Translations under genes and position numbers: made by a program
Part shown: piece after piece, positions 16,139 to 34,185 of the stretch
Layout: each line of letters starts with the position of its first letter
Numbering within the stretch: position 1 is the stretch's first letter
The notes under the pieces: generated by a model
The model's input: only the letters and a program-made list of their open reading frames with translations
Told to the model about the DNA's origin: nothing
Database searches by the model: none
Assembly (NCBI GenBank): GCA_018269055.1
Contig: JAFDVI010000001.1
Location: 69,443 to 133,442, forward strand
Direction: 5' to 3'
Origin: Acidobacteriota bacterium
GTDB lineage: Bacteria > Acidobacteriota > Blastocatellia > RBC074
Length of the DNA stretch: 64,000 nt

Positions 16139-16745
16139 TTACCCTGAGCTACCGTTCTGTCCGTTGCCGTTTTTTCCGGGAAAACGCCGTTTCATCACGA
16201 TAGGTTTCGGCGGGCGGCGGATCGAATTGCCTGCCTCGTAAAGCTCGCTCAGCAAATGCACGCTCAGCGGGAGCGGGAAGTATTCGGATCCGGGGATGCC
16301 TCCCAAACTCATTCGTAAACGTCCTGGGCCAGCAACCCTCATTTCGATCAGTTCCCGCTGATAATCGTTGAAGTCTCTCATTAACTTCCCTATCCGCGTG
16401 ACTTTGTCATTCATCATTTCTTGAACCAGAAGCAGTTGCTCGGCAATGGCGCTTTCATTCGATATGGTTTGAACCAGTTTTGGCGAACAAACACGGAAGC
16501 CGCTATAAAACAGCATTGCCCGAATGCCTCTGGCTTCTTGAATCAGATTCTTGGCGCCGACCAGTAAATTCTCAATTTTATCAATTGTGTTCAACAGATA
16601 GTTCAGTCCCTCCAGGAAAATTGCCCTCTCCTCGGAGGCAAAGAATCTGGTTCGACCGGAATACCGAAGCGCTTCCATCAAGTCTTCGCACTCGCCTCTT
16701 GCGTCCTGCAGTTCCATTTCCAGTTGTGTAATCATTGTTGCACCT
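16139..16745 (-). CDS. Hypothetical protein. It is the last gene of the multi-REC operon and its 5' region carries direct repeats.
   Basis: An AAGGAGGTG RBS sits 6 nt upstream of the ATG at 16745 (MITQLEMELQ...). I recognise no known domain. The protein is predicted helical. Confidence 0.5.
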
Positions 16746-16820
16746 CCTTTTACCGATGAATCTTTCGTTCTCAATCAGGTGCATTTTCACGACGTTCGTA
16801 CACGGCAGGGCTTATCTTTC

Positions 16821-16958: not shown

Positions 16959-18905
16959 TTACTCCGATTCATCGGCCAGCCAGTAACCGCCGCCCGGTTC
17001 GTTGAGCAACAGGCGCGGATTCTCAGCATCGTCTTCGATCATTTTTCGCAATCGGCTGATAGCCACGTAAAGACGGTTGTTCTGATAGCTGTCATTTTCG
17101 CGGTACTCTTCCTTGAAGACTCGTTCGATGATTTCGCGCGGTGAATACAGTTGCCCGCGCCGTTCGGACAGCAAGCAAAGCAAATCATAGCTTTGCTTGC
17201 CTATGCGTAGGCGTTGACCACGCACCAACACAGCATGTTTTTCCTTATCAATTTCCAGCTTTCCACTGTGCGCTATTCGGTGAAGCGTTGCAGGTTGAGC
17301 GAGTTTGCCGCTGCTGACGGCGGCGGCAAGCAGTATATGAATCATGCGTACCAGTTCGCCTTTCACCAGTGATTCTGGATTGAGGCTCATAAACCGGCGC
17401 ATCGCTTCGAAGAGCATTCCCCAATGGTAGGTCGCCTGTCCCTGAACCAGCATGTTACTGGCCAATTTTCTGACGGTTTGGATGATGCGCGCTACGGGAC
17501 GTAGCGGCGGTTCCAACTCGCCGAAGTTGAAAATAGTGAAATCAGCGACCAAAGATTTTTCGAATTCGTGCAGCCAAATCAGCTTGTCGTTTTCGACCCA
17601 GTCGAATCGGATCATCGCTTCCAAAATTACGAAGTTCCAGAACAGCGGCATGGGGCCGGCACCGGCAAAATCCGTCAGCCAGGCCTTGCCAGTGCTATCG
17701 CTCAAAATACGCTCTCCGGAGGAAATGATTGGAGAATTGATCAGCGCCGGAAATCCGAAATCGCGGCGCATCATCTCCATCGGGTCGGGATATGTAATGG
17801 ACTCGCCGCCGAAGTAAAAGCGGATACTTCCCGGCGTAATTTCAAGTTTCATGTCCAGCAGAGTGGCTTTTTGCGCAAGAGCCTTTAGCCGCAATTCGTA
17901 TGCTTCAGGTGCCAAGCCGGAATAATCAAAGCCGAATCGCGATTGGCACAACGCGCCGAGAGATTCCCACTCATCTGAGAGATATTTTTCGCGAAAGCAA
18001 TAAGCAAGTGTCTCCTGGAAAAGCGTCTCAATTGTTTTGGCAACCGCCCTTTCATTGCCGCTGCGATACAATTCGATTAGCGAAGACACGCCGTCCAGAT
18101 CAGCCCCTATCAGCGTGTAAGCATTCAAGGCAAAATGGGTAACCGCTTGTGCGGATTTCAGTTGTGTTCGATTTAATCCGTCTGTTTTGGCAGAAACTTC
18201 GGAAGCTCGTTTGCTCTCTTCAGCGATCAACGATTCCCTTCCGCACACTACAAACAACGAAGTCTGTGGCTGATGGTCGGTAAAGGTGTGCACAAGCAAC
18301 GCAACTCGCCCGCCGCTCTGCCAATACAAGCGGGCAATTCGAATCAACCGTTCCTGCTGGAAAACCCGCCGAAACAGATATTCCAGTTCTTCTGCCTGGT
18401 TGGCCGCCTGCACGCGTTCCAGGCTGGGGCTGATTAGATCGGCCAAGTGCTGGAACGACGAAAGTCGCGACTGTTCATCGAACCGAATCTCCAGCTTTTC
18501 GTTACTCTGCGCATATTTTTTCAGGGCATTTTCAATTGCGCTGAGCAGCGCCTTCTTTCCTTCCTTCTTGCTGACGAAATCCACCGCAGGCGGCAATCCC
18601 TCCACCACCGGCCCCAGCGCTTTGCGAACCTGGTCGTAATCCGGCCAGCGGGTCATGATAATTTTAGGAATGCGGCGGTACTCCATTTTCTTGGCCAATG
18701 AAATACCGCTGGTGTCGCGACGGTTGTTGTCCTGTCGCAACCGTACATCAGTGATAAGTAGATTCACCCACGAATCAGCCATCACGCGCTCGGCCTCCTC
18801 GGAAGAAGCTGCGCACATCACTTCATAACCTGCTCGCTCCAAAATGTCAGCGCAGGTTTCCAGATAATCCGGATCGTTATCCACGACCAACAATCTCTTT
18901 TTCAT
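16959..18905 (-). CDS. Atypical response regulator: REC (with insertion) - protein-kinase-like/APH-like domain (probable pseudokinase) - OmpR/PhoB-type winged-helix DNA-binding domain
   Basis: The N-terminus is LLVVDNDPDYLE...LITDVRLRQDNNRRDTSGISL. The middle region resembles a kinase C-lobe: ...SSGERILSDSTGKAWLTDFAGAG is DFG-like, with a degenerate HGD catalytic loop. The C-terminal Trans_reg_C motif is YDLLCLLSERRGQLYSPREIIERVFKEEY...LYVAISRLRKMIEDD...GGGYWL. AGGAG RBS. Confidence 0.75.
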   Translation of the reverse strand: MKKRLLVVDNDPDYLETCADILERAGYEVMCAASSEEAERVMADSWVNLLITDVRLRQDNNRRDTSGISLAKKMEYRRIPKIIMTRWPDYDQVRKALGPVVEGLPPAVDFVSKKEGKKALLSAIENALKKYAQSNEKLEIRFDEQSRLSSFQHLADLISPSLERVQAANQAEELEYLFRRVFQQERLIRIARLYWQSGGRVALLVHTFTDHQPQTSLFVVCGRESLIAEESKRASEVSAKTDGLNRTQLKSAQAVTHFALNAYTLIGADLDGVSSLIELYRSGNERAVAKTIETLFQETLAYCFREKYLSDEWESLGALCQSRFGFDYSGLAPEAYELRLKALAQKATLLDMKLEITPGSIRFYFGGESITYPDPMEMMRRDFGFPALINSPIISSGERILSDSTGKAWLTDFAGAGPMPLFWNFVILEAMIRFDWVENDKLIWLHEFEKSLVADFTIFNFGELEPPLRPVARIIQTVRKLASNMLVQGQATYHWGMLFEAMRRFMSLNPESLVKGELVRMIHILLAAAVSSGKLAQPATLHRIAHSGKLEIDKEKHAVLVRGQRLRIGKQSYDLLCLLSERRGQLYSPREIIERVFKEEYRENDSYQNNRLYVAISRLRKMIEDDAENPRLLLNEPGGGYWLADESE

Positions 18906-19749
18906 GGTTTCGCTCCTGATTGGCTGATCGTTTGGCCGGCACAGACGGCTTTACTGGTTTCTGCCCCAACCACAAACCAGTAGCGGCATTGATGACGCGC
19001 TCTCTGCATTGCTCACGCATTCCGCCAACCGGCAGTTCCTCACTAGCGTCAAGCAGAATTTCCAATCCGCGGGTTTCCACCAATTCCTGGTGATACCGAT
19101 CCATGCGCTCGTTGGCGCTGTCGGTTCGCTTGAAGAAAAGCAGTGTTGCAGCTTCCGCCAGCACACCAGCCAAAGCGCTCAACACTGCCACATAAGTTTT
19201 ATCCTTGAGCGCCAGATATGTCCCGACAAAGATAAAAACCGCCCCCAAAACAGCGATGCCCAATCCTATCCGATAATTCCAGCGCGATTGCTGGCGAGCT
19301 TCTTCATAATCCTGATTGAGTTTGAGCACCAGCGTGTTGCTCGATTCACGATACCGGGATTCAAATTCCAAAGTGTTCCGCACTGCCGACAGTATCGCTG
19401 AAAATTCGTCTTTTTTGTCCACACAAGCTGCTGGACGCAGCTTCCCGTCCAATGACTCCTTGTTTGCTTTCCGCAGTGTTTCGTAATTCAGCCACCGAGT
19501 CAGAAGAATTTTGGGAACTTCCGGTGCTACCTTCAAAATGCGAATGCCGCTGATGTCCTGCTTGTTGCTATTGTTTTCCAATCGAACGTCCAGAATCGCC
19601 AGATCAATCCCGCCTTGCTCCAGAATTGCTTTGGCATCGTCTGGATTGGTTGCCGTCCTTACCTCAAAGTGCTTTCTGTCAAAATAATCCCGAAGCGATT
19701 CCAAATAATCGACATCATTGTCGGCCAGTAACAAGGTGTATTGAGCCAT
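18877..19749 (-). CDS. REC domain (with insertion) fused to a 2-TM membrane region and a short C-terminal tail
   Basis: Paralogous to the REC of the previous gene (LLLADNDVDYLE...LAILDVRLENNSNKQDISGIRIL...ILLTRW). Two hydrophobic helices follow (IGLGIAVLGAVFIFVGTYLAL; VAVLSALAGVLAEAATLLFF). AAAGGAG RBS. Its 3' end overlaps the next gene by 29 bp. Confidence 0.75.
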   Translation of the reverse strand: MAQYTLLLADNDVDYLESLRDYFDRKHFEVRTATNPDDAKAILEQGGIDLAILDVRLENNSNKQDISGIRILKVAPEVPKILLTRWLNYETLRKANKESLDGKLRPAACVDKKDEFSAILSAVRNTLEFESRYRESSNTLVLKLNQDYEEARQQSRWNYRIGLGIAVLGAVFIFVGTYLALKDKTYVAVLSALAGVLAEAATLLFFKRTDSANERMDRYHQELVETRGLEILLDASEELPVGGMREQCRERVINAATGLWLGQKPVKPSVPAKRSANQERNHEKEIVGRG

Positions 19750-19761
19750 CGAACGTCTCCT

Positions 19762-20133
19762 TTAAGCCGTAAGGTTTAATGCCTTGCAAACGGCCTCGCG
19801 CAATTCATCTTCGTCGTAAGATTTGCTGATGTAGTTTGTCGCGCCCGCTCTCATTGCGCTGCGCGCATGCTCCCAATGGGGCGCGGCTGAAGCGACAATA
19901 ATTGGCAAAGTTTCCTGTCGGCTTCGGATCAGCTCAATGAGAGCGGATGGCTCCGCCACCGCAGTCGCATCTATAAAAAGCAGTACGTATTCGCAGCCTT
20001 CAATTGACGCCAGGACATCTTTTTCTCCCACCGCATCTACTTCTCCCAGCCCAACCAGTGCCGACCTGAGCGTTCTGAGCCAATACTGGCTTTGCGATCC
20101 GTTGATGAGGAGGAATCGCATCTTAGAAACCAT
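19762..20133 (-). CDS. Stand-alone single-domain receiver (CheY-like) with a degenerate acidic pocket
   Basis: 123 aa. The putative phospho-Asp is in VLLFIDAT and the conserved Lys in YISKSYD. The N-terminal acidic pair is replaced (LLINGSQS). Confidence 0.65.
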   Translation of the reverse strand: MVSKMRFLLINGSQSQYWLRTLRSALVGLGEVDAVGEKDVLASIEGCEYVLLFIDATAVAEPSALIELIRSRQETLPIIVASAAPHWEHARSAMRAGATNYISKSYDEDELREAVCKALNLTA

Positions 20134-20148: not shown

Positions 20149-23100
20149 TCAATTTAATCGCGGGAGTTCAATTACTACCCGTGTACCAGTCTTTTCGCCT
20201 TTGGTGCTGGTCCAGGGAATCTGAATGCTACCGCCGTATTTTTTGATTATGGCCTGCGCCTTGAGCAAGCCGCCCCCTAACCCTTCACCGCCGTCTTCCT
20301 TGGAAATGATGCCCTTGAAAAGTTTGTCCAAAACCTTTTTAGGAATGCCCCTCCCCGTATCTTCAAAGGTGATTTCCACCTTTCCGTTCTCTTGGCTGGT
20401 GGTCACAGTGACCTCTTTCCGTTTGGAGTTCGCGACTGCCCGCACTGCATTGTCAATCACAATGTCACAGGCGAACTGAAACCAATCAGGACTGATTCTG
20501 ACTTCCAGCGGGTCGCTTGGTAGCAGGTTAAGTTTGTACTTCGTCCTTTGCTCAGGGTCATTTTCCCTGCGCGTTCTGATTTGCTCAGCCAACAGGTCGT
20601 TGACCGAAACATTTGTCACCCCCTCTTCGTTGGTGACCGGCGGAGTGATCTTGTAGTCCTGAATTTTTTGCGCGAGTTCCCTGATTTTCCTGAGCTTCTT
20701 GTCCTGTTCTCTAGTCAGCTTTTTCCCGTACGGATCGTCGAAGATTTCGCCGACTTCGGCGGCAATCGTAATCGCCTTTCCCTCGATCTCGTGCCTCCAC
20801 ACTCCGCTGACCATATCCATCCAGGAAAGCTCCGTGCTCGCCTGAATCTGCACATTGGCTTCAATCAGGCTTTTGTACTTTCGGGCATTTTGAATGGCGA
20901 TGGCTGCCTGTGTCGCCAGTGACTCCAAATCCCGTTTATCTTCTTCGTCAAAGGCGTTTGGTTCCGGATGTTCCAGGTTGATTACATAAACCACTTCGTC
21001 ATCAATGATGATTGGAACCGCGAGTTCCGCTTTGGTGGCGGGGTAATATGAAAGGTAGTCCGGGTCTTTGGATACGTCCCCGACCAAATACGATCGCTTA
21101 TCGCGAACAACCCGACCAGTAATTCCGATTCGCTTGCCCGGCTCAGGATTAAGCGGGATCGGAGGATTCTCGGGCGGCGAAGTCGGATAATAAGCCTCCG
21201 CTACGGCTTCATTCCCGACGATCCGCCTGATCGCCACAAAAGCTCCTTCTTCATTGGCGAGCTTCCACATCCAGGGAATGATTTTATTGATGACTTCGCG
21301 TTCAACGAGCGTCCTGGTAATTTCCTCGCCTGCTTCGTGCAAGGTCTGCAATGCTGTAACGCGTCTCCGCAATGCTTCATAAAGGCGCGTATTTCGGATG
21401 GCAACAGCGGCTTGGTCGGCAAAGAGTTCGATGTTCCGCTGCTCATTTGGCGTAAAGTTGTGCTGAGAACGGTTATTGACGAATAGGACGCCAACCGATT
21501 CCGTGCCGAGTCGCAGCGGAACAGCCAAACAGGATTTGATTTCTTCCTCTCGGGCAAATCGTTTGTCATGAAACATCGGGTCTGATGAAACGTCATCCGC
21601 TTTCACCGTCTTTCCCAGTTTCATAATTTCGTAAACCAGGGAATTCTCGGGAACTTCATCCCCACTAGCCAACTGCTCATCCCATACGCCAACCATGGTC
21701 CGCGGCTTCCTGAAGCTATTCTTCTCCTGATCGTAAACGAACAACACAATTGGCTCACAACCCGTAGTTTCTTTCGTGCCGTGGACAATTGTATTCAACG
21801 TTGTATCCAGGTCGCCGAGCGTGGTGACTTTCGCCACGACTTTTGCCGTGTCGCGCGTGGCCTTCAACTCTTTCATCTGACGTGCATTGTCGTACGTGCT
21901 CGCCGCTTGATTGACGTAGAGTTGCAAGGACCTGAGTTCCTGGCCGGTAAAATTGTGTGGCTCGGCGTAAGCAACCCAAAGCACTCCATGCCGCCGGCCT
22001 TGAGCAAAGAAGGGCAGGCAGATCGCTGCTCTAACCCCGTGTTCGAGAAGCAGTGGATTGGTTCGCCCCGGTTGGCGTTTCAAGTCAGGGATGGCAATCA
22101 GTTGGCCGCCGCGCATGACTTCGAGCGACACGCCATTTGCTCGAACGGAACGCGTTAAATCAAGCTGGCGTCCGATTTCATCAGGAATGATTCGCAGAGG
22201 GCGATAAGTTATCTCGTCAATCAAGATAATTCCTGCAAACAGAGCCTTCGTTGCTTTGCGCGTCAGTTCGCAGATAATTTGCAGCACCTGATCGGGGTCT
22301 TGCGGCGCGACCAGTTTGTCACTGGCGCGAGTGAGCGCTTCCTGCCTGATTCGCGCTTCCTGAGTTTGCTGAAACAGATTGTGATTCTCAACCGCTACGG
22401 CCGCCGCATTGACGAAAGTCATCAGGGATTTGAGGTCTTCTTCTGTAATGGGCAAGCGTGTGAAGTTATTGTCGGCAACGACCACGCCGAAAACGTGCCC
22501 TCGCACATTAAGCGGGGCCACCACCAGTTGCGGTCCGGGCAAAAATGCTTCCAGCAACCGATCTGGCAGTTTCAGCGCCTGATCACCTTCCAAGATGAGA
22601 CCCTTGCTATGCCTGCCATCAAGGACCTCATTGAATATATCGTCCGCTGAAGGCTTGCGTTCAAACCGCAATTCCTGCACCTTCGCGCCAACCGGCGTGA
22701 GTTCGATCTTTCCCTGCTCAAGCAGCTTTGTGTAATGAAAGAAATCGTCCAGCGTAGGCGCTTGCCAATCTCGCCAAACCGTATCCGCAGAAGCATGGTC
22801 AAATTGACCTATTCCGCATTTACCGACCAATTCCCCGCGTTCGTCCAGAAGAAAGAGGGCGGCGCGATTGAACCCCAATCCGTAACCCGCCGTGACGCCG
22901 GTCAAGGTGACGTGCAGCAAGCGTTCCAACCTCTGCGCAGCGGTCAATCCTTCATCGCCAAGCATTTTTTGAATGTAAAAGCTGACCTGATGGAGCAGGT
23001 TGAGCTGCTTGTTGACCTTTTCCTTTTGCGTCCCAAGCCGTGCGTTCTGCAATGTCAGCGAGGCGCGCCCTGCCAGCCGTTCCAACATCTCCTCATCGGT

Positions 23101-25350
23101 TTCGACAAACTGCCGGCTGTCGGTGCTTCCTACAACCAGCAGATATTCAATTTGTTCGCTGGGTTTGAGCGGCACAGCCACGACGGTCTTGAAGTGAAAT
23201 TGGTCGAAAGCGTGCTCGCGCTTGTGCCACTCATCATATTCAGCCTTGAACTGCGGTCTGCCCGTGCGGATGACTTCACCAAGCAATCCCTCCACAGACG
23301 AGGGATAGATAGAAGGCAGTGTGTTTTCGGGAAAAGTTCGGCAAAGCTCCAACTCCAACTGGCCGGGGCGGCAGGCAAAGAGAAAACTATTCGAATAATC
23401 CAGCACCTCTGCCGCGTACCGCGTGATTTCCTGTTCCAGTTCCGAGACCTTCAGTCCGCCTTGAATGTGCAAAAGGGCCTTGTTCAGCTTATCCAACAAA
23501 TGGTTGCGGTATTCGGTGAGGTCGAACTGCCAAAGACGGTCAATCAGACCAGTGATCTGGTGCGCAATGGCCGTAGCTGTCGGATAATCGGTTTCGTCGG
23601 TAGCGAAGGGAAATATCCCCGCCTTCTGCACTTCGCCGAGGGTGAGCAACCCAACGATCCTGTCGTCTTTCAGCAGGGGAACCAGCATCAACGTTTGAAT
23701 GTCTTCGCTAAGCCGCAAATATCCGGCAAATTGAATCAACTCCTGCCGCCACTCGGCGTCGCTGTGGAAAATTACTTTGCACTGGTTGGTATCGAAGATT
23801 TCCCGTAACAAGGCGCAGTCAGAGATTTTCATTGGAAATCCGGAGGCCGACCTATCATCCGGCCCCAGACCTGCATCCAGGGGAACATGTGAAACCTTGC
23901 TGACCAGGGTCTGGCTGTTTTCGTTGTATAGAAAAATGCTGCAGAAACTACTTTGTAACCGTTCAGCCAGCAGCCGCGCCAAAGCATTCAACCCCTCTTT
24001 AAGCGTGGCGGCTTCGGCCATGATCCTGCTGGCCTCCGAGAGGACCGCCAGTTGAGCATCCTTTTTTTGAATCTCTGTCAGATTTTCGAAATGGCCGATA
24101 CTGCCCAGATAAGCGCCGCTGGCGTCGTGGACGTAAGCCGCTGAAAGAAGAACAGGGACAGGGCGGCCATCTTTGGTCACCAACTCGGTTCTTTCCTGTC
24201 GCACCATGTGGTCTGAAGCGGTTTCCAGCATTTTGCCGATGCGTTGGGCTTCCGAAAATTTGAGATAGAGAATTTGAACGCCTTTCCCGATCAATTCCTC
24301 TTCCGTGTAGCCCAAAATCTGCAACGCCCGCTGGTTGACGAAATTGATCTTGCCTTCGGTATCAATGGCGATCTGGCCATTGGGCGAGCAGTGATCAAAA
24401 AGAGCCAGTTTTTGTTTTTCGGCGTCCAGTTGCTGCGCCAAATCTTTGGTCTGTTGAAAGAGCGCGGCATGTCGAATAGCTATAGCGGCCTGTGTGGCAA
24501 TGGTTTCAGCAAGTCTTTGGTGTTCTTCCTTGAAATAGCCAGTTTCGCGACAACTAAAGGTGAACACTCCTATGGCTTCATCGCCGTCTTTAAGCGGCAC
24601 GAGCAAAGCGGAGCCTCGCCGTAAGACGTCATCGGCCAAGATCAGCCAGCGTGGATCGGTGGTGAAATCGTCCAGACGCAGCGACTCAGAATTATTCATG
24701 ACCCATTTTGCACAGCCGTTGGCAAGGATCATCCGCGCCTTTTCATCCGACATGGCCAGTTCGTGGCCCCGCCAATTGTGCAGGCTGCCGTCTGCCTTGA
24801 CGAGCAGTAGACTTCCTTCGTGCGCGCCAATGCTGGTGGTTGCTCGCGTGATGGTTTCCTGCAGCAGGGTTTCCAGATCAAGATGCCTGAGATTCAATTG
24901 GTCAGAAATAACGCTGAGTAATTTCAGTGTGTCGAGTTCCTTAAACAGATGATGCTGCTGTGCGGCGTGGCGGATCAAGATGGCCAGTTCTTCCGGGTTA
25001 AAAGGCTTGGCTAAATACCGGAACGCTCCTGCCTGCAAGGCCTCCAAAGCCCGCTCCATTCCCCAGCCTGTGAAGATGATTGTTTCAGTGCGCGGCGAAT
25101 GCTTTTTGATATGGCTCATCAGGTCAACGCCGGAACGGATCGGACTTTTTCCGGCGCTGGGCGCCAGCACATCATCAATTAGCGCGACGTGATAAGGAAG
25201 TGTTGCACTTGTCACAAGTTCCCAAGCCTGCTCGGCGTCAGCGGCGGCATCCACGTGATAGTCATAGTCGGTTTGCAAAAATTCAGTCAACGGTTCGCGC
25301 AGGTTTATGTCATCGTCCACCAGCAAAACCCGCAAAGGCTCGTCGCTCAT
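20149..25350 (-). CDS. Giant multidomain signalling protein: REC (with insertion) - multiple GAF domains - PAS - further GAF domains - C-terminal histidine-kinase-like ATPase (HATPase_c)
   Basis: 1733 aa. The N-terminus is VLLVDDDINLRE...ALIDDVLAPSAGKSPIRSGVDL. At least five GAF-like modules are present. The C-terminus carries the N-box IDNAVRAV and the G-boxes DTGRGIP and GGEGLGGGL. A possible H-region is VWRHEIEGK. A strong GAAGGAGGG RBS precedes it. Its ATG overlaps the stop of the upstream kinase gene (ATGA). Confidence 0.8.
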   Translation of the reverse strand: MSDEPLRVLLVDDDINLREPLTEFLQTDYDYHVDAAADAEQAWELVTSATLPYHVALIDDVLAPSAGKSPIRSGVDLMSHIKKHSPRTETIIFTGWGMERALEALQAGAFRYLAKPFNPEELAILIRHAAQQHHLFKELDTLKLLSVISDQLNLRHLDLETLLQETITRATTSIGAHEGSLLLVKADGSLHNWRGHELAMSDEKARMILANGCAKWVMNNSESLRLDDFTTDPRWLILADDVLRRGSALLVPLKDGDEAIGVFTFSCRETGYFKEEHQRLAETIATQAAIAIRHAALFQQTKDLAQQLDAEKQKLALFDHCSPNGQIAIDTEGKINFVNQRALQILGYTEEELIGKGVQILYLKFSEAQRIGKMLETASDHMVRQERTELVTKDGRPVPVLLSAAYVHDASGAYLGSIGHFENLTEIQKKDAQLAVLSEASRIMAEAATLKEGLNALARLLAERLQSSFCSIFLYNENSQTLVSKVSHVPLDAGLGPDDRSASGFPMKISDCALLREIFDTNQCKVIFHSDAEWRQELIQFAGYLRLSEDIQTLMLVPLLKDDRIVGLLTLGEVQKAGIFPFATDETDYPTATAIAHQITGLIDRLWQFDLTEYRNHLLDKLNKALLHIQGGLKVSELEQEITRYAAEVLDYSNSFLFACRPGQLELELCRTFPENTLPSIYPSSVEGLLGEVIRTGRPQFKAEYDEWHKREHAFDQFHFKTVVAVPLKPSEQIEYLLVVGSTDSRQFVETDEEMLERLAGRASLTLQNARLGTQKEKVNKQLNLLHQVSFYIQKMLGDEGLTAAQRLERLLHVTLTGVTAGYGLGFNRAALFLLDERGELVGKCGIGQFDHASADTVWRDWQAPTLDDFFHYTKLLEQGKIELTPVGAKVQELRFERKPSADDIFNEVLDGRHSKGLILEGDQALKLPDRLLEAFLPGPQLVVAPLNVRGHVFGVVVADNNFTRLPITEEDLKSLMTFVNAAAVAVENHNLFQQTQEARIRQEALTRASDKLVAPQDPDQVLQIICELTRKATKALFAGIILIDEITYRPLRIIPDEIGRQLDLTRSVRANGVSLEVMRGGQLIAIPDLKRQPGRTNPLLLEHGVRAAICLPFFAQGRRHGVLWVAYAEPHNFTGQELRSLQLYVNQAASTYDNARQMKELKATRDTAKVVAKVTTLGDLDTTLNTIVHGTKETTGCEPIVLFVYDQEKNSFRKPRTMVGVWDEQLASGDEVPENSLVYEIMKLGKTVKADDVSSDPMFHDKRFAREEEIKSCLAVPLRLGTESVGVLFVNNRSQHNFTPNEQRNIELFADQAAVAIRNTRLYEALRRRVTALQTLHEAGEEITRTLVEREVINKIIPWMWKLANEEGAFVAIRRIVGNEAVAEAYYPTSPPENPPIPLNPEPGKRIGITGRVVRDKRSYLVGDVSKDPDYLSYYPATKAELAVPIIIDDEVVYVINLEHPEPNAFDEEDKRDLESLATQAAIAIQNARKYKSLIEANVQIQASTELSWMDMVSGVWRHEIEGKAITIAAEVGEIFDDPYGKKLTREQDKKLRKIRELAQKIQDYKITPPVTNEEGVTNVSVNDLLAEQIRTRRENDPEQRTKYKLNLLPSDPLEVRISPDWFQFACDIVIDNAVRAVANSKRKEVTVTTSQENGKVEITFEDTGRGIPKKVLDKLFKGIISKEDGGEGLGGGLLKAQAIIKKYGGSIQIPWTSTKGEKTGTRVVIELPRLN

Positions 25351-27566
25351 TTCGCCCCTCCTTCATCGGCAGCGGGCAATTCGACCAGAATTGTTGTCCC
25401 CAATGGAACGAAGCTTTCTTCAACGCTCACCCTGCCGCCCATCGAATTGACGAAGCTGCGCGCAATGAACAGTCCCAAACCGCTGCCGCCGCGTGTCGAA
25501 AATCCGGGTGAAAAAATCTTTTCCCATAACTGGCGGTGAATGCCTGGGCCGCTGTCCCAGAATCTGACCTGAACGGGCAACTCCCCTTCTCCCAAACTAC
25601 TGCTAATTGACAGCGAACGATGGTCGCCTCCCTTTATGGCCATTTGCTGTACGGCGTTGAGCATCAGATTCAGAAAGATTTGCTGCAAGGTGATGACGCT
25701 GCCTGCGACTTTAGGAAGCCCATCGGCCAGACGGCGGTTTATTTTCACGCCCTCTCGTCGCGCGACGGGTAGCAACAATGTTTCCGCGCGCAGCAACACC
25801 TGATTGAGGTCGCAGCCGCTGTCGCTGTGCTGAAGGTTGGTGCGGGACAATTGCTGAAAAGCCTCTACCGTATTCTTCATATCAACCACCATGTCGAGCA
25901 CGCGCTTGGAATCGAGCTTTAAGCGATCCTGTCCCTCGCATTTGCGCAGCAGGTTGAGAACCTGGATTTCGAGGCCGGAAACCTTGTTGGCGACTTCATG
26001 GCCGAAGCCTGCGCCCAGTTCTCCGCTCAACAGCATGGGGTGCATGGCCTGCAATCGTCTGTTGATGACGTCTTCGGTCAGAAGGGCTGAGAAAAGCGCC
26101 GCGCCCACGTATGCGTCCCGCAGCAGGCTGTCTCGTTGAAACCGATCCGGATCGCGGTGAAAAAAGAAGGCGGCGTGCCGGACTTCGCCGTGCACCTTGA
26201 TCGGGACGCCGAGGCAGGATTCGAAGCTCACATAATCGAGCAGCCGCGCAAAGCGAGCGCGCCCGCGGTCGCTGGCCTGGTTTTCGATTACCGACCTGCT
26301 TTCGCAAATCACATCTTTGACTGGACTTTCACGTAACGCATAGAAGGCCTCCTGATTTACAGCCACGCCCTCGGTCTGCGCCAGCAAGCTGATGGCCTGA
26401 GATACCGGATCAAGACAGAAGATCATCCCCGCCTGCGCGCGCATGTTTTTCGTGATCCAGGAAAGCGCCGCTTTCAGGCGATGAAACGGCGCGTCTTCCA
26501 AATCTTCAAACAGTTCCAGTTCGGGAAAGATTAGGGTTTGATCCCGTTCCGGAATGTGTTTGGCGTGCCAGGGCTTGATCGCTTCGCCCCCCGCCAGACG
26601 CAGAAAAAAGTGCTCTAACTCAGCCAGATCCAATGGTTTGGGAAAGACTTCCGACACCTCAAGTTCTTCGATTTCCGATGCACGGCCCGCCAATGTATCC
26701 GGTGTGCTCATCACGCAAATATGCGCTTGACTGCCCAGCTTTTTGGCGTGGCGAACAAGCTCCAATCCATCGCAATCGAACAAGGTCAAATCAGCAAGGA
26801 TCAACCCCCAATCTTTTTGTCCCAATTGGAATAGGCCCTCATTCAGGGTCGCGACCGGCTCAACCTCACAGCCGTGTTGTTTCAGCCAAGTCGTCAGTGA
26901 ATCACGCATCGCCGGATGATCCTCCACCAGCAGAATCGGCCCGATCAAAAGACACACCTCCGGAGTAATCATCTCGCCGGTAAAGGCCGCTGCCATAGAT
27001 GCGGTCACATCCGTTTCATCTATCCCGGTTTCCACTTGATCAAACATCGCCAACGCCCGTTTACGTTGTTGCAACCGCGCTTTAATGCTCAACAGAACTT
27101 TCTTTCTGCTCGGATCAATCCGTGTAACCACTGCTTCAACGCGGTCTTCCAGCCAAAACAATTCCTCTGGACGCGCAATCCGGCGTTCGCTCAACTCGTC
27201 GAGCGACACAAAACCTCTGATGCCTGGACAAAGGCGGACAGAAACACCGTTGGAGTGCAAAGCGCTGATGGCTCCTTCAATCACACTGCCTTCGCGGTGA
27301 AGGCGCAGAAAATCGTCCCAACCGTCTTCCAGCAAATCGCGGCGACTCAGTTCCAAGCACTTGTCTGTTTTTTCCAGGCCGATGACGATGCCCTGTACCA
27401 GTTCGCCAACCTGCGTCACTTTCGCCGGTTCTAGATCAGGTTCCAGACTTAATTCGCGGCGGCGAATGTATGCTCTTGTTTTGTCGCGGAGTTGCAGAAA
27501 GACACCAAAGGGCAGAATTGATTCAACAATTCCTTCCACTTTTTGTCCGATTTGATAGCCGCTCAT
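25347..27566 (-). CDS. Hybrid sensor histidine kinase with two N-terminal S1 RNA-binding domains: S1-S1-REC-GAF-HisKA-HATPase_c
   Basis: The S1 motifs are GQKVEGIVESILPFGVFLQL and GSVIEGAISALHSNGVSVRL. The REC is ILLVEDHPAMRD...LILADLTL. The H-box is GFGHEVANKV. HATPase motifs are LNLMLNAVQ, DSGPGI and GGSGLGLFIARS. An AGGAG RBS lies 8 nt upstream of the ATG at 27566. The longer ORF to 27872 lacks an RBS and overlaps the promoter region. Confidence 0.8.
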   Translation of the reverse strand: MSGYQIGQKVEGIVESILPFGVFLQLRDKTRAYIRRRELSLEPDLEPAKVTQVGELVQGIVIGLEKTDKCLELSRRDLLEDGWDDFLRLHREGSVIEGAISALHSNGVSVRLCPGIRGFVSLDELSERRIARPEELFWLEDRVEAVVTRIDPSRKKVLLSIKARLQQRKRALAMFDQVETGIDETDVTASMAAAFTGEMITPEVCLLIGPILLVEDHPAMRDSLTTWLKQHGCEVEPVATLNEGLFQLGQKDWGLILADLTLFDCDGLELVRHAKKLGSQAHICVMSTPDTLAGRASEIEELEVSEVFPKPLDLAELEHFFLRLAGGEAIKPWHAKHIPERDQTLIFPELELFEDLEDAPFHRLKAALSWITKNMRAQAGMIFCLDPVSQAISLLAQTEGVAVNQEAFYALRESPVKDVICESRSVIENQASDRGRARFARLLDYVSFESCLGVPIKVHGEVRHAAFFFHRDPDRFQRDSLLRDAYVGAALFSALLTEDVINRRLQAMHPMLLSGELGAGFGHEVANKVSGLEIQVLNLLRKCEGQDRLKLDSKRVLDMVVDMKNTVEAFQQLSRTNLQHSDSGCDLNQVLLRAETLLLPVARREGVKINRRLADGLPKVAGSVITLQQIFLNLMLNAVQQMAIKGGDHRSLSISSSLGEGELPVQVRFWDSGPGIHRQLWEKIFSPGFSTRGGSGLGLFIARSFVNSMGGRVSVEESFVPLGTTILVELPAADEGGAK

Positions 27567-27738
27567 GCTGAAACTCCTGAATGTATCATTCCCGGAATTA
27601 GGGTAATGCGAGAACTGGCGAAGGGTACTTACATTCTCCTTACAAATTTCGACAGCGGCAGAAGTTACGGCTCCGGCCAGGGGCGTAGAATGTTTGAGGG
27701 ACAAGCTGGCGGCTTGTTCCTCATCTTCGGTGGGTTTT

Positions 27739-29610
27739 TCAGTGAACAATGACCGGCACGCTGACATGCGAAGGAAACTGTTTCGACCGATGAATGCTGT
27801 GTGTTGCTTTGATGTAATCGGCGTCCGTCGCTTTGAAAATGTTCGGCACGAATTTTTGCGGGTTGCGGTCAATGATCGGGAACCACGAGCTTTGCACCTG
27901 CACCATCATCTTGTGCCCCTTCAAAAACCGATGATTGCAATACCGCATGTTGACGGCGAATTCGTTGATCGCGTTGGGCGCTAACGCTTCCGGTTTTTCA
28001 AAGCTCTTGTGGAACCGCCCGCGAAAGACTTCGTTGGCGACCATCAATTGGTACCCGCCCATTTTTACATCCTGCGGATAATTTTCGGGATACACATCAA
28101 TCAACTTGACGATCCAATCGGCGTCCGAACCGGTTGTTGACGCGAACAAATGGCCTACGACGTTGCCGCTGATGGTCAGGTCTTCCGTCAACGAATCAGT
28201 TTCCCAGCTCAGCACATCCGGTCTCCCTTGCGCAAAACGTTGATCGCCAACCAGCCACGCGCCCCAACCGGAACCGCGCGGATCGTAAGTGGCTTCGACC
28301 GGGCGCGGACGATACGGAACAGGGTTCGCCGGATCGGAAACGTAACTGTCCGCAGCCTGGCGGCTGACATCCGTTGGCGCGTCAAACGATAATTTGCCGT
28401 TGGCTTGAAAATGCAGCTTGCGCATTTCGGTTTTGTAACTTGGCGGCCATTGGTCGTAACTACGCCATTCGTTCGATCCGGTTTCAAACACATTCGCTTC
28501 TTTCCACGTTGGTGTGCCTTTGTCCTTCAGGTAATAGGCAAAAAAAGGAGCTTCGATTTGCTGGCGGTATTGCAGCGAGATGTTTCCGCCGAATTGAATC
28601 TTGCCCAAACTGCTGCCGTCCGCGCGCGCCCAACCGCCGTGATTCCACGGGCCGCCGACAAAGAAGTTCTGCTTCTGCGGATCGTTCTTTTCAAACTCTT
28701 CGTAAATTTTGACCGGGCCGTAAAAATCTTCCTGATCCCACCAACCGGCCACGTTCAACGTCGGCACCCGCGCCTGTTTCAAATATCCGGCGGCAGCCTG
28801 TTCCTGCCAGAACCGGTCGTAATTCGGATGCTCTACAAAATCGTTCCACGTAAGGATTTTGCCGTGCAGGTATTTTTCGTTGACGTTCGACAGCGCGCCC
28901 AGCCGCAAATACCACTCGTAAGTGTCGTACTTGTCGAATTCAAACCGAGCCTGTTCCTTGTTGGTTTCCATCATCGTCGCGTATTCAAACCCATAGCTGA
29001 GCCGGAACGCGCCGTTGTGATGAAAATCGTCGCCCATCCACATATCCGCCGGAGACGCTTGCGGCGAAGCCGCGCGCAAGGCCGGGTGCGGCGCAATCGT
29101 CGCCATCATCGCCGTCCAGCCCGGGTAGGAAATGCCCGTGATGCCTACGCGACCATTGTTGTTCGGGACGTTTTTGGTCAGCCATTCAATTGTGTCGTAA
29201 GCGTCCGTGACCTCATCAATCCGCTTCGGATCGTTTTTCAGCACAGACACCGGAGCGCGCTGCATAACAAACTGCCCTTCGGATTTGAAGCGCCCCCGAA
29301 TGTCCTGGAAAACAAAGATGTACCCTTCCGCAACCAATTCCTTGAACCGACCAGCTTGCGCCCACCCTTGCCCTGCCTGTGCCTGATACGGCGTGCGCTC
29401 CAAAATGATCGGCAACGGCCCGGATTGGTTTTTCGGCGTGAAGATGTGCGTGTTCAGCTTCACGCCGTCGCGCATTGGAACCATGACGGATTGGAAGTTG
29501 AAGGATGGCGAGGGTTGTTGTCTCGCACCCGCAGGAAAATTTTGTGGAATGGAAAAAATTGCCGCTGCAATAAGCAGGCACACAAAGAATCTAGGTACTT
29601 GACGATTCAT
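27739..29610 (-). CDS. CocE/NonD-family (S15, X-Pro dipeptidyl-peptidase-like) alpha/beta hydrolase, secreted
   Basis: 623 aa. Has a signal peptide, the catalytic GISYPGW (GxSYxG) motif and a large C-terminal beta-sandwich. Confidence 0.8.
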   Translation of the reverse strand: MNRQVPRFFVCLLIAAAIFSIPQNFPAGARQQPSPSFNFQSVMVPMRDGVKLNTHIFTPKNQSGPLPIILERTPYQAQAGQGWAQAGRFKELVAEGYIFVFQDIRGRFKSEGQFVMQRAPVSVLKNDPKRIDEVTDAYDTIEWLTKNVPNNNGRVGITGISYPGWTAMMATIAPHPALRAASPQASPADMWMGDDFHHNGAFRLSYGFEYATMMETNKEQARFEFDKYDTYEWYLRLGALSNVNEKYLHGKILTWNDFVEHPNYDRFWQEQAAAGYLKQARVPTLNVAGWWDQEDFYGPVKIYEEFEKNDPQKQNFFVGGPWNHGGWARADGSSLGKIQFGGNISLQYRQQIEAPFFAYYLKDKGTPTWKEANVFETGSNEWRSYDQWPPSYKTEMRKLHFQANGKLSFDAPTDVSRQAADSYVSDPANPVPYRPRPVEATYDPRGSGWGAWLVGDQRFAQGRPDVLSWETDSLTEDLTISGNVVGHLFASTTGSDADWIVKLIDVYPENYPQDVKMGGYQLMVANEVFRGRFHKSFEKPEALAPNAINEFAVNMRYCNHRFLKGHKMMVQVQSSWFPIIDRNPQKFVPNIFKATDADYIKATHSIHRSKQFPSHVSVPVIVH

Positions 29611-29817: not shown

Positions 29818-32439
29818 ATGTTCGTTCGCAAGTTTCGCGTGGGGCGATGGTTTGTCGCCGCGCTGGCCCTGATGTTGTTTTATGCGTCGCTGATTGTGCT
29901 CTCGTCGGCGCAATCGGCCAAGCCACCTGCGGCAAAATTCAAACCGGCGAATTTTTCCGCCGCCGCGTTTCACGACGACGGCGAGGGGAAGAAAAAAGGC
30001 CCCAGCCGCGAAGATCGCATCCGCGAAGCCTGGGTCTGGCACCAGGCCAATCGGCAACGGTTGATCGAAACCGAAGGCCTGGCCAGTTTGGAAGCGGAGG
30101 TGCCCGCTGAAGACATCAATGACATTTCAGTCATTCAAGCCGACAGCCGCATCGCTACGCCGTCGAATTTCTTTGACCTGACCGGTCGTCAGGTGCAATT
30201 CACACCTTCTGGTTCGGGGTACACGATTTCCTCGACGACCGGAGGGTTTGACGCCAACTTCGGAACGAAGCTCAACCTGACCACATCGCCCGCCGTCAAT
30301 CCCAAAGCAGGAACGGACCCCGGCGATGACGCTTATATCAATCAGGATTTGGGATTCAGCTTCAGTTTTTACGGTTCGTCGTTTACCACGGTGGCGATTT
30401 CCAGCAACGGATTTCTGGCCTTTCGACCGGCGGGGGTAACGCAAACGGATTTTGATTTGGGCGCTTCGGAATCGGGCGAAAGCCTGGCCAAGTTGCAAAC
30501 GGGCATTCCGCGCATTGCGCCGTACTGGCACGACCTGGACGCGGAAGCGAGTGTCACGCAAGGAGCCAACGGCATTTACATTCGCAAAGACAGCGATCGT
30601 GTGGTCATCACCTGGAACAACATACGCGATTTTCCAAACGATCCAACCGTAGACAACGGCATTCACCGATTCCAGGCAACGCTGTTCAGCAACGGGCGAA
30701 TTGTGTTTGCTTACGATCAAGCACAGTTGACCAGTTTGGCGCTGACGGGGATTTCCGGCGGAGGGGTGGCGGCTCCCGTGCCGACGTTGGTGAATTTTGC
30801 CAGCCCGTCGGCGTCGGTGATTACAACGCCAATTGCCGAATTCTTTTCCACCAGCTCCAAACTGGATGTGGTCGCGGCGGCGCAGGCGTTTTACACCGCG
30901 CACCCAAACAACGATGTTTATGATTTCGTGTATGTGCTGACCGATTTTCAGTTCGATCTGGGCGATGCGTTCGCGTTTTATTTGCCGCTGCGCAATGACG
31001 CCGCAGGCATCGGGTTGGAAGTCGGGGTGTCATCTGACGCGCTGACCATTAATAGCCAAAAGATTCAGGGCATTCTGAATCTGAGCAACATTTCGCAGGC
31101 ATATCCGGCTTCGCCCGTGACGCGATTTCTGGGCGCCAACCACGCGCTTTCGATCATGGGGCAGGAACAGGGGCATCGCTGGTTGGCGTTTCCGGGCTAT
31201 CCAGGGGCTGATCCAGCGCTGTTGCTGGGACGCGATAATGCGCACTGGAACTTTTTCCTGAACATCGAATCCAACGTCAGCAGCCCGGCAGCGCCGCGCT
31301 CATCCAGCGCCGAAGGCAGCGTTTGGCGCGATAACGGCAACGGTTCTTTTACAACCATCAACCTGATTGATGGGTATTCACGATTGGATCAATACCTGAT
31401 GGGATTGCGTCCGTCCACGGATGTTCTTGACACGTTTCTGGTCGCCAATCCGTCGGGAACCGTGCGCACGCGCGAATCCAATCCTTTCCCGAACGTGACC
31501 GTTTCCGGCACCCGGCAAACCATCACAATGAGCCAGATTTTGCAGGCCAACGGAAATCGCAACCCGAGTTCGGCAACCGCGCCCAAAACCTTTCGCGCGG
31601 CGGTTGTGTTGTTGACGCAGCAAGGCGCACAGGCTTCGCAGGCGACGCTGGACAAAGTCACGCTCTACCGGCTGGCTTGGGAAAGTTACTTCCGCCAATC
31701 CACCGATGGGCTGGCCAGCATCAATACGGGCCTGGCGGACGCGGCGACGGCGCGAACGATCGTGGCGCTGTCCGCCGCCAGCTTCAAACAGACTTTGGCC
31801 GCCGGAGAAATCTCTGCGCTGTTTGGCGCGGGTTTGAGCGGCAGCACTGCCGTGGCAAATTCGACACCGTTGCCGACGACGCTGGCCGGAACGCAGGTAC
31901 GAATCAACGGAACGCCTGCGGGTTTGTTTTTCGTTTCGTCCGGACAGATCAATTTTCAGGTTCCATTGACGACGACAACGGTGACAGGAACCGCGGTCAA
32001 CTCTTCTACCGCATTGATTGAAATTTACAGCAACGGGCAGTTGATTCGCGCCGGGACGTTCCAAATTGCCCCGGTCGTTCCGGGCATCTTCACCACCAAC
32101 CAGAGCGGCACCGGCGCAGCGGCGGCGCTGGACGCGTTCACCTTCACGCCCGGCCCATTCAATGCCAAACAATCCAATGGCCAGCCCAACATCATCGCGG
32201 TGTTTGGAACAGGCCTTGGAGCCGACGTAACCGATACCAATGGCGATGCGGCTGGTTCGACGGCGGCGACATTGGATGGTGCGAATGTTTCGGTGGGGTA
32301 CGCTGGCCGAGCGCCCGGTTTCATCGGATTGAATCAATTCAACATCACCTTCCCGGCAAATATCACGTCGGGCAATCACACTTTGTTGATTTCGCGTAAC
32401 GGCATCGCCGCCCGCGAAGTGACGATTGCCGTCAAATAA
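29818..32439 (+). CDS. Secreted hypothetical protein with a C-terminal Acidobacteria-type (TIGR03437-like) domain
   Basis: 873 aa with a signal peptide. The C-terminal ~250 aa (QINFQVP...IIAVFGTGLG...GRAPGFIGLNQFNITFP) are paralogous to the C-termini of the genes at 34224 and 53612. Confidence 0.7.
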   Translation: MFVRKFRVGRWFVAALALMLFYASLIVLSSAQSAKPPAAKFKPANFSAAAFHDDGEGKKKGPSREDRIREAWVWHQANRQRLIETEGLASLEAEVPAEDINDISVIQADSRIATPSNFFDLTGRQVQFTPSGSGYTISSTTGGFDANFGTKLNLTTSPAVNPKAGTDPGDDAYINQDLGFSFSFYGSSFTTVAISSNGFLAFRPAGVTQTDFDLGASESGESLAKLQTGIPRIAPYWHDLDAEASVTQGANGIYIRKDSDRVVITWNNIRDFPNDPTVDNGIHRFQATLFSNGRIVFAYDQAQLTSLALTGISGGGVAAPVPTLVNFASPSASVITTPIAEFFSTSSKLDVVAAAQAFYTAHPNNDVYDFVYVLTDFQFDLGDAFAFYLPLRNDAAGIGLEVGVSSDALTINSQKIQGILNLSNISQAYPASPVTRFLGANHALSIMGQEQGHRWLAFPGYPGADPALLLGRDNAHWNFFLNIESNVSSPAAPRSSSAEGSVWRDNGNGSFTTINLIDGYSRLDQYLMGLRPSTDVLDTFLVANPSGTVRTRESNPFPNVTVSGTRQTITMSQILQANGNRNPSSATAPKTFRAAVVLLTQQGAQASQATLDKVTLYRLAWESYFRQSTDGLASINTGLADAATARTIVALSAASFKQTLAAGEISALFGAGLSGSTAVANSTPLPTTLAGTQVRINGTPAGLFFVSSGQINFQVPLTTTTVTGTAVNSSTALIEIYSNGQLIRAGTFQIAPVVPGIFTTNQSGTGAAAALDAFTFTPGPFNAKQSNGQPNIIAVFGTGLGADVTDTNGDAAGSTAATLDGANVSVGYAGRAPGFIGLNQFNITFPANITSGNHTLLISRNGIAAREVTIAVK

Positions 32440-33307: not shown

Positions 33308-33615
33308 TCAGGCATCTCCTCAAACATCGCCACTCCTTACAGTGATTGACGGTTTCGCCTTGATCCGGTAGTTTCTCGCGCAGCCTGAAGCACTGAGCAA
33401 ATTGCTCAACATTAGCGATTCCCTGTTCCCCTGAATCGTCAGCCAAGTTTCAGGCGTACGCTTGTCGTTACGAAAAACTACGGATCTTCTGAATTACCCC
33501 TGCATCCTCGTTCTGCTCACCCGGCGAGATCCTCCGCGCTTCGGCAAAGTCGCTGTCGCGATGTTGTCAAATCACTTTCTTTCTAACTTTGTTTTTGAAA
33601 GGAGCAAAACTTTCT

Positions 33616-34185
33616 ATGCATTCACGGCATTCTTTCCAAAAACCTATTGCGCTGCTGATGCTCTTTGCGCTCGCAACAGTCTTTTTTTCTGCTTTTTCTG
33701 CCAAAGCGACAATTATGCAGCGCCTGGAAATTGAGGAATTGGCGCGCAGTTCCACGGATGTATTTCACGGACAGATTCTTTCCACCCAAACCTCTTGGAA
33801 TCCGAACCACACACGCATTTACACCGGGGTAGATGTTCGCATCCAGGAAAGCTTCAAAGGCGCCGCACGACAGGGCGACACCGTTCGAATCGTGCAATTA
33901 GGCGGCGAAAAAGATGGCTTCAAAACCGATTACGCGGGACGCCCGGAATTCTCAGCGGGCGAATCCGTAGTGCTGTTTACCACGCGCACGCGCAATCACG
34001 AACTGACCGTTGTCGGGTTGAAGCAAGGCAAGATGAGAGTCAATGGCCAATCTGTAATCCGCGACTTTTCAGGGATCACGCTGATTGAACGCTCAAAATC
34101 TGGGAAAGAACCGCAATCGCCGAAACCGATATTCGCGCAGTTAACCTTGAGCGAACTTCGCCAGCGAATCAGCAGCGCGAAGTGA
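33616..34185 (+). CDS. Secreted hypothetical protein
   Basis: AAAGGAG RBS. Has a signal peptide (ALLMLFALATVFFSAFSAKA). Lies immediately upstream of the metalloprotease gene. Confidence 0.5.
   Translation: MHSRHSFQKPIALLMLFALATVFFSAFSAKATIMQRLEIEELARSSTDVFHGQILSTQTSWNPNHTRIYTGVDVRIQESFKGAARQGDTVRIVQLGGEKDGFKTDYAGRPEFSAGESVVLFTTRTRNHELTVVGLKQGKMRVNGQSVIRDFSGITLIERSKSGKEPQSPKPIFAQLTLSELRQRISSAK

Follow-up and report, generated by a model that had tools for sequence, protein, structure and literature searches.

Locus and gene organisation

The stretch of DNA considered here (the window) comprises 64,000 nucleotides, positions 69,443 to 133,442 of the forward strand of contig JAFDVI010000001.1 from an Acidobacteriota bacterium (GenBank assembly GCA_018269055.1). 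On its minus strand lies the gene of a histidine kinase, which we call HK1, in which two S1 domains precede a receiver (REC) domain, a GAF domain and the kinase core. HK1 heads a cassette that also encodes a second histidine kinase (HK2), a small stand-alone receiver, a receiver fused to two transmembrane (TM) helices (REC-2TM) and a receiver protein ending in a winged helix (RECX). The combination of S1 domains and kinase has already been recorded by automated annotation (NCBI, JGI), and the fusion is not new to databases. In the literature searched, whose coverage left out one relevant paper, no paper describes either the HK1 architecture or the cassette. What is new here, from sequence comparison, is the place of HK1 as the lead of a conserved two-kinase cassette with swapping receiver-effectors, and we propose that this cassette may serve bacteria as an RNA-reading switch for immunity or suicide. 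The gene and its domains are as follows.

25347..27566, minus strand: HK1, a kinase of the order S1-S1-linker-REC-GAF-DHp-HATPase, 739 aa (open reading frame, start codon, Pfam, NCBIfam, AlphaFold2 model, homologues)
27339..27554, minus strand: S1 domain 1, aa 5-76, with the near-invariant motif A-Y-I-R-R-R-E-L (Pfam, bS1 alignment, AlphaFold2, Foldseek)
27078..27299, minus strand: S1 domain 2, aa 90-163, with Ser109 (TCT) in the window copy (Pfam, bS1 alignment, AlphaFold2)
26943..27077, minus strand: helix and hypervariable disordered linker, aa 164-208 (mean top-residue frequency 0.29; model confidence score, pLDDT, <50 at 181-197)
26601..26942, minus strand: receiver domain, aa 209-322, with D216, phospho-acceptor D259, S287 and K310 (Pfam, homologue alignment)
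26127..26486, minus strand: GAF domain, aa 361-480 (sub-threshold Pfam GAF_2 match, conservation, AlphaFold2 fold)
25362..26132, minus strand: kinase core, DHp hairpin aa 479-576 with His523 and HATPase_c aa 587-735 (Pfam, NCBIfam, AlphaFold2, Foldseek)

The long open reading frame (ORF) of HK1 spans 25347..27872 on the minus strand, and its likely start is the ATG at 27566, with an AGGAG eight bases before it. The resulting 739-aa protein is equal in length and 100% identical to a database protein (P0001) from an Acidobacteria metagenome-assembled genome (MAG), which NCBI names only "S1 RNA-binding domain-containing protein". A first-pass annotation, made from the letters and a list of ORFs, had described HK1 as a cytoplasmic kinase, first in its operon, with a stop that overlaps the start of the 1733-aa gene. 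The overlap was read correctly and is an ATGA (HK2 ATG 25350-25348, HK1 TGA 25349-25347), through which HK2 is translationally coupled to HK1; a GGAGG box lies inside the 3' end of HK1. The cytoplasmic location also stands, since no 19-residue hydropathy window of HK1 reaches 1.6 and no stretch is therefore of transmembrane level. The position at the head of the operon holds by comparison of loci, its sole support, because the genes upstream vary from locus to locus while the cassette downstream stays constant; a promoter and terminator scan of the operon returned fewer matches than shuffled controls and was uninformative.

The S1 pair of HK1

Several approaches agree on the nature of the N-terminal module. 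The Pfam S1 model (PF00575) matches two stretches of HK1 (E 1.5e-19; the score is 70.6 bits, the cut-off 22), and the first 177 residues align, both domains together, with residues 274-434 of E. coli bS1, that is domains 4-5 (E 2.5e-33), in an alignment that takes in the "DPW" linker between the repeats. In the AlphaFold2 model both domains are five-stranded barrels with pLDDT >90. Foldseek matches the pair with 7a05, the NMR structure of bS1 domains 3-4 (E 8.9e-16), and with chain 9guv_B, the bS1 of a 30S mRNA delivery complex (159 columns at an rmsd of 2.9 A). The first-pass annotation had proposed to check the N-terminal region for an OB/S1 fold, and by these alignments and the predicted structure both domains are bona fide bS1-type OB folds.

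Conservation was read from an alignment of 79 full-length HK1 homologues. The two S1 domains show about the conservation of the ATPase domain; the roughly 45 residues after them are hypervariable and predicted to be disordered. The S1 tandem, together with all catalytic residues of the receiver and the kinase, is retained down to 24% overall identity. For the canonical RNA face we take as reference F19, F22, H34, D64 and R68 of PNPase. With residues mapped by alignment only, the putative equivalents kept by the family are F/Y20, F23, R35/R37, E/D66 and K/R69 in the first domain, with Arg35 where typical S1 domains carry His, and F109, D151 and K/R155-156 in the second; R36 and E72 of the first domain are conserved as well. 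In a more distant branch the second domain has the canonical G-L-L-H motif and so retains the His. From these residues and folds we predict that the S1 pair of HK1 probably binds single-stranded RNA.

The likeness to bS1 opens another possibility, that the pair is an integrated bS1 decoy, and that phage factors which hijack or modify bS1 trip the kinase. Q-beta replicase recruits S1, T4 RegB needs S1 and T4 ModB ADP-ribosylates it. That the tandem aligns with domains 4-5 of bS1 including the DPW linker and matches bS1 structures would suit such a decoy, and the high conservation of the S1 domains would suit mimicry of a conserved host protein. However, the known contacts of phages with S1 are mainly in domains 1-2, whereas the HK1 pair resembles domains 4-5, and its motif reads YIRRREL where the consensus of bS1 is GLVHISE. 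We regard the decoy reading as very unlikely.

Receiver, GAF domain and kinase core of HK1

The order S1-S1-REC-GAF-kinase core given by the first-pass annotation proved right by Pfam, NCBIfam, AlphaFold2 (mean pLDDT of the HK1 model 82.8) and Foldseek. Pfam Response_reg matches residues 211-318, and this receiver has the acidic pocket E215/D216 as well as D259, S287 and K310, of which D259 and K310 are invariant in the homologues. The GAF domain scores slightly under its cut-off (GAF_2 at 364-477, 26.9 against 28.6 bits), but it is folded in the AlphaFold2 model and strongly conserved, with 25 of its 120 columns at least 90% conserved. In the ATPase domain (HATPase_c at 625-733, E 2.3e-17) the ATP-binding boxes N633, N637, D671, G673, G675 and G698 are invariant. 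The Pfam HisKA model gave no match in HK1. We nevertheless place a DHp domain there, because the NCBIfam AtoS model aligns to residues 486-735, the AlphaFold2 model has a DHp helical hairpin at 479-576, and the C-terminal half superposes in Foldseek on the DHp and CA cores of ZraS and HK853; His523 and Asn527 are invariant in the 79 homologues. To judge from the sequence, the catalytic residues of the kinase and the receiver are all intact. The receiver stands upstream of the GAF-DHp-CA part, as in LvrB-like REC-kinases, and not downstream as in a classical hybrid kinase with its C-terminal receiver, so that the label of hybrid kinase first given to HK1 does not fit.

Distribution and divergence of the HK1 family

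A check for further S1-kinase architectures, also proposed in the first-pass annotation, found HK1-type proteins that form about 95 clusters when grouped at 90% identity; at 50% identity, among 1.84 billion representatives, there are about 85. The full-length architecture recurs in these independent clusters, which come from many samples, and in more than 60 species genomes, with a patchy spread over species. Filamentous Chloroflexota (Anaerolineae, Caldilineae, Chloroflexia, Herpetosiphon, Ardenticatenaceae) make up the great majority of the hosts, and a few are Acidobacteria. That the window comes from a metagenome-assembled genome could have suggested that the fusion arose in assembly or gene calling, or that the match is fortuitous. 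The independent clusters, the many samples and the species genomes refute this, and with the strong Pfam S1 match and the confident model we consider it hardly credible.

Gene context was compared in 78 loci from GTDB species genomes and in several metagenome contigs with precomputed Pfam hits (loci are designated by L numbers); the cassettes were mapped by ORF calls and by phmmer and jackhmmer across loci. Between the window and its nearest locus, L004, HK1 is 83% identical, HK2 59%, RECX 76% and REC-2TM 85%; between the window and Chloroflexota, HK1 is 38-46% and HK2 23-37% identical.

One locus has a split form (L083, 5045..7361), in which a 170-aa S1-S1 gene and a 576-aa REC-GAF-kinase gene in a different frame are separated by a 73-nt gap; either the gene has undergone fission or a frameshift lies inside the variable linker. 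We also considered kinase-less S1-S1-REC proteins as RNA-binding response regulators and set them aside, since the examples stand at contig ends or are short fragments, probably truncated.

The two-kinase cassette

In the loci examined, HK1 always heads a co-directional cassette. Its other members in the window are these.

20149..25350, minus strand: HK2, a kinase of the order REC-(GAF x6-7)-PAS-DHp-HATPase, 1733 aa (domain search, ATGA overlap, synteny)
19762..20133, minus strand: small stand-alone atypical receiver, 123 aa (Pfam Response_reg, E 1.2e-7)
18877..19749, minus strand: REC-2TM effector, 290 aa, a receiver with CyanoTRADDas_TM and two TM helices at about aa 157-207 (domain search, hydropathy)
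16959..18905, minus strand: RECX, a receiver followed by an APH/protein-kinase-like domain (TCAD9) and an OmpR-type winged helix, 648 aa (domain search, AlphaFold2, Foldseek)

In 55 of 61 loci the gene directly after HK1 encodes an HK2-type kinase, and its start mostly overlaps the stop of HK1. Its length ranges from 878 to 2761 aa (homologues in L003-L069) through a changing number of GAF repeats, and the window copy has its D, H, N and G boxes intact. HK2 is the fastest-diverging gene of the cassette, at 59% identity to L004 where HK1 has 83%, a pattern that would fit a diversifying sensor.

The small receiver occupies an apparent gap of 400 bp at the 3' side of HK2. It keeps the phospho-acceptor Asp, the Thr/Ser (Ser in the window) and the Lys, and its N-terminal acidic pair has become Asn-Gly; receivers of this kind, of about 130 aa, were found in some 14 loci.

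At one position of the cassette, many loci encode a receiver whose C-terminal fusion partner differs from locus to locus. The window and 10 other loci have the TRADD-N-associated 2TM domain there; three loci have a CAP12/Pycsar-type TIR, two have EAD7 and one has TIR_2, and in one more the protein is EAD7-REC-CHAT.

In 40 loci a REC-TCAD9 protein closes the cassette, in the main clade with an OmpR-type winged helix as in RECX. The AlphaFold2 model of RECX (pLDDT 86.5, predicted TM-score 0.85) is matched by Foldseek with APH(3')-Ia in its middle domain, with CheY-like receivers, and with the winged helix-turn-helix (wHTH) domains of YycF and RstA. RECX has an invariant DFG-like Asp412 and lacks the catalytic-loop Asn, and may be a pseudokinase. 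The REC-TCAD9 protein of L069 carries TIR_2 in place of the wHTH; the distant clade has a separate AAA_16/nSTAND(-wHTH) gene after the REC-TCAD9 gene.

Some loci have further genes at the edges of the cassette. In the distant clade (L050, 7713..9987; also L052, L057, L058, L062, L063 and L074) a pair of conserved genes (about 365-400 aa each) lies ahead of HK1, and the first of these in L050 weakly matches SPFH/Band_7; in L003 a Band_7 gene (10209..11021) follows the cassette. The Band_7 and 365-400-aa genes may be clade-specific extra components. The 211-aa ORF after RECX in the window (16139..16774) was rejected as a component, being conserved only in the closest relative, L004.

Upstream of HK1, the 182-nt leader folds no better than shuffled sequences (z = -1.14). 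Within it, at 27600..27660 on the minus strand, the block GTCGAAATTTGTAAG-AGA-TGTAAGTACCCT is nearly identical in the window and L004, and the surrounding intergenic region is more variable. This block may be a promoter or operator, with the caveat that the two loci are close relatives; the similarity of the leaders as such was discarded as a functional signal, as it only reflects that kinship. A non-coding RNA linked to the cassette was likewise rejected as a ligand, as Rfam at gathering thresholds gave no match in the 64-kb window, scans for tRNA and tmRNA genes found none there, and the folding of the leader is unremarkable.

Elsewhere in the window, two plus-strand ORFs of 873 aa (29818..32439) and 198 aa (33589..34185) have no Pfam match and sit between an S15 peptidase and a matrixin-like metallopeptidase.

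Indications of a defence or death role

The cassette is probably of the conflict or abortive-infection type, as receivers fused to TIR, caspase-like CHAT, pore-type TM and Death-like adaptor (EAD) modules that swap at one position are the signature of such systems. The versions with TIR and with CHAT match the PADLOC effector models PDC-S35, PycTIR, Aga_TIR and SAVED_CHAT. A single Anaerolineae MAG (CAZVCJ01) carries, on two contigs (L014 and L016), two paralogous cassettes with different third genes, REC-2TM in the former and a 211-aa REC protein with an unannotated 230-aa ORF in the latter. In L001 and L002 a tyrosine-recombinase (phage integrase) gene (8886..9722) lies directly upstream of an identical HK1, and the two loci differ farther upstream, which suggests that the cassette is mobile. 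In L082 an HK1 fragment at the end of a contig has genes for DruA (Druantia), AAA_22 and PIN proteins (1957..2571, 6772..7218) no more than 6 kb away, the only clear defence-island-like neighbourhood among the loci examined. Taken together, a defence or death role is, on balance, the better supported expectation for the cassette.

The first-pass annotation had suggested phage or stress-induced transcripts as the input of HK1. The part of this idea that concerns phage or stress gains support from the swapping death effectors (2TM, TIR, CHAT, EAD7), and the RNA input itself stays a prediction. Its picture of the S1 pair as a plain replacement of the usual sensor region was overstated, as the conserved GAF domain, the N-terminal receiver and the multi-GAF/PAS HK2 are candidate inputs too.

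Proposed mechanism and its alternatives

The reading that we favour, tentatively and as somewhat less than probable, is that HK1 is the RNA-tethered lead kinase of a self-contained cytoplasmic multi-step phosphorelay that triggers abortive infection or programmed death. The S1 pair would bind single-stranded RNA, either phage transcripts or host RNA exposed by disturbed translation or RNA turnover. RNA could then concentrate or cluster HK1 dimers or, by analogy with PKR, pull an inhibitory S1 module off the kinase. Clustering or de-docking would be the most likely mode of action, because a disordered hypervariable linker cannot carry a conformational signal. His523 would autophosphorylate and the phosphoryl group would move to the receiver of HK2, which would integrate further signals through its GAF/PAS array and phosphorylate the effector receivers. 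The REC-2TM protein would then damage the membrane and RECX would act on DNA or transcription, with the small receiver as a sink that buffers leaky signal, like DtcB of the Detocs system. A more specific version, in which HK1 is an innate-immune RNA sensor that signals by His-Asp phosphotransfer, clusters on RNA as PKR does and, by way of a second, signal-integrating kinase, drives pore, TIR or caspase-like suicide effectors in single cells of filamentous bacteria, is in our judgement doubtful; HK1 would then be the first two-component kinase with RNA as its input.

A number of observations weigh against the favoured reading. The same disordered, hypervariable linker argues against direct allosteric coupling between the S1 pair and the kinase. 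HK1 is the slowest-evolving component, and sensors of invaders usually evolve fastest; its conservation would imply a conserved ligand (host RNA, the ribosome or a general feature of RNA), or else that HK2 is the real sensor of the invader. The GAF domain and receiver of HK1, and HK2, are candidates for alternative inputs. The split gene of L083 suggests that the S1 module can work, or be lost, in trans, though the different frames of its two parts may reflect a frameshift. The window copy itself has Ser109 (TCT, 27240..27242) where the second S1 domain canonically has its beta-2 aromatic; 73 of the 79 homologues have Phe there and no other has Ser. It also has Ser121 (27204..27206) where 67 of the 79 have Pro; the two changes may be a real weakening of this copy's second S1 domain or a consensus error of the MAG. 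About half of the loci are without a dedicated REC-toxin gene and have only REC-TCAD9-wHTH, and a purely regulatory role in stress or development is therefore possible. No model of PADLOC v2.0.0 at E <= 0.01 matches HK1, the small receiver or RECX. The flanks of the window are ordinary (peptidases, sulfatase, BNR protein, amidohydrolase) and do not form a defence island, and the IMG/VR viral contigs gave only generic kinase-core matches and no member of the HK1 family. The RNA input, the regulation of the kinase and the defence against phage are, all three, predictions from sequence.

Part of this evidence would suit a role of the S1 pair as an output or localisation module. The GAF/PAS array of HK2 or the GAF domain of HK1 would then be the sensor, and phosphorylation of the receiver would alter the action of the S1 domains, by sequestration of mRNA, a block of translation, or parking of the kinase on ribosomes or the degradosome. 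The S1 pair does adjoin the receiver, HK2 varies in length and evolves fastest where HK1 is most conserved, S1-like OB domains serve as effectors in other conflict systems, and L083 has separate S1-S1 and REC-GAF-kinase genes. Receiver output domains normally lie C-terminal to the receiver, whereas the S1 pair is N-terminal to it and joined through a disordered linker. Moreover, the HK1 kinase is fully intact, stands first in the cassette and is coupled in translation to HK2, and the proteins with S1-S1-REC alone, which could have served as a precedent, are probably truncated at contig ends. We consider this role of the S1 pair rather unlikely.

Alternatively, the cassette may be a housekeeping phosphorelay (for stress, development or filament differentiation) whose main output would be transcription through REC-TCAD9-wHTH; the S1 pair would couple it to the status of translation or RNA turnover, and death effectors would be occasional add-ons. 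In favour of this, REC-TCAD9-wHTH is the universal output and many loci are without a toxin gene. The strong conservation of HK1, the ordinary flanks of the window, the missing PADLOC match of the core and the absence from viral contigs point the same way. Yet TIR, CHAT, EAD7, TCAD9 and nSTAND are hallmarks of conflict or apoptosis-like systems, and even the C-terminus of the REC-TCAD9 protein swaps between wHTH and TIR_2. The patchy distribution among species, the two paralogous cassettes of one MAG and the integrase that adjoins two of the loci also count against a housekeeping role, which we judge to be unlikely, and more so than the output role of the S1 pair.

Implications

The known inputs of two-component kinases are small molecules, light, proteins and the state of redox or of the membrane, and to our knowledge, which includes the literature searched, none is known to have an RNA input. 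If the S1 pair does gate HK1, RNA would be a new class of input for the commonest bacterial signalling system, and the cassette would give bacteria a second route, beside CRISPR type III and RNA-activated CBASS, to immunity triggered by the reading of nucleic acids. Leaving RNA aside, the cassette broadens the concept of Detocs with serial kinases, an APH-like/wHTH output and TIR, CHAT, 2TM and EAD7 effectors, in the poorly studied filamentous Chloroflexota, and it joins His-Asp phosphorelays to an "apoptosis-like" domain vocabulary that had been reported as without histidine kinases. With its 4-5 genes and soluble proteins, the cassette is compact enough for a direct test of the hypothesis.

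Comparison with known systems

The tandem S1 domains of HK1 and their characteristic inter-repeat linker align with bS1 (RpsA) over about 160 residues. Unlike bS1, with its 4-6 S1 repeats, HK1 has only two repeats and is without the ribosome-anchoring domains 1-2; it scores 92.2 bits where the NCBIfam rpsA cut-off is 577, and so falls outside that family. The beta-3 motif is YIRRREL in HK1 and GLVHISE in bS1, and the S1 pair of HK1 is fused to a kinase.

LvrB of Leptospira (PDB 8vc9), a REC-DHp-CA "hybrid response regulator", is among the top Foldseek matches of HK1, with about 540 aligned columns, and gives a structural precedent for a receiver N-terminal to the kinase core. In both proteins the receiver precedes the DHp-CA core, an arrangement by which an upstream kinase can control a downstream one. 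The differences are that LvrB has neither S1 nor GAF domains and is a virulence regulator outside any effector-swapping cassette.

PKR has tandem dsRNA-binding domains joined by a flexible linker to a Ser/Thr kinase and sets off an antiviral or shut-down response. The likeness to HK1, two RNA-binding domains on a disordered tether to a kinase, is one of analogy, and suggests clustering templated by RNA. The two are not homologous: PKR combines dsRNA-binding domains with a Ser/Thr kinase, HK1 S1/OB domains with a His kinase.

The NTP-dependent or EAD-coupled conflict systems of Kaur et al. 2020 and 2021 (PMC7159879, PMC8195603) are biased to multicellular and filamentous phyla, Chloroflexi included, and the hosts of the HK1 cassette match this bias. 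The two also share the swapping of effectors and a vocabulary of EAD7, TCAD9, CHAT, TIR, TRADD-N-associated 2TM, nSTAND, S1-like OB domains and stray receivers. In the systems of Kaur et al. the S1-like OB domains stand in effector position, receivers are sporadic effectors and no histidine kinases were found (PMC7159879, PMC8195603), whereas the core of the HK1 cassette is a His-Asp phosphorelay. EAD-coupled and ternary systems are defined by a MoxR-vWA, STAND or GTPase core with a VMAP-type component, and the window cassette has none of these.

Detocs (DtcA/DtcB/DtcC) has three parts: a cytoplasmic histidine kinase whose sensor region is TPR, a "buffer" receiver that stands alone, and a receiver-effector. 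Its effectors swap between loci, transmembrane ones included, with a PNP ATP-nucleosidase in 80% of systems, and protection against phage requires the His and Asp residues (Rousset et al. 2023, bioRxiv 10.1101/2023.01.24.525353). Compared by description, the HK1 cassette is likewise an operon with a histidine kinase, a stand-alone receiver and a swappable receiver-effector, and it shares the logic in which a kinase leads to Asp phosphorylation and this to activation of the effector. It differs in several respects. The sensor region of HK1 is S1-S1-REC-GAF where the Detocs kinase has TPR; two kinases stand in series, each with an N-terminal receiver; a universal REC-APH-like-wHTH component is added; and the effectors are 2TM, TIR, CHAT and EAD7, with no PNP seen in the loci examined. 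PADLOC v2.0.0, whose Detocs profile content is unconfirmed for this release, gave no match for the core proteins of the cassette, and the hosts are Chloroflexota and Acidobacteria. We therefore do not file the cassette as a member of Detocs, which is nonetheless its closest validated analogue and the system whose way of working it appears to share.

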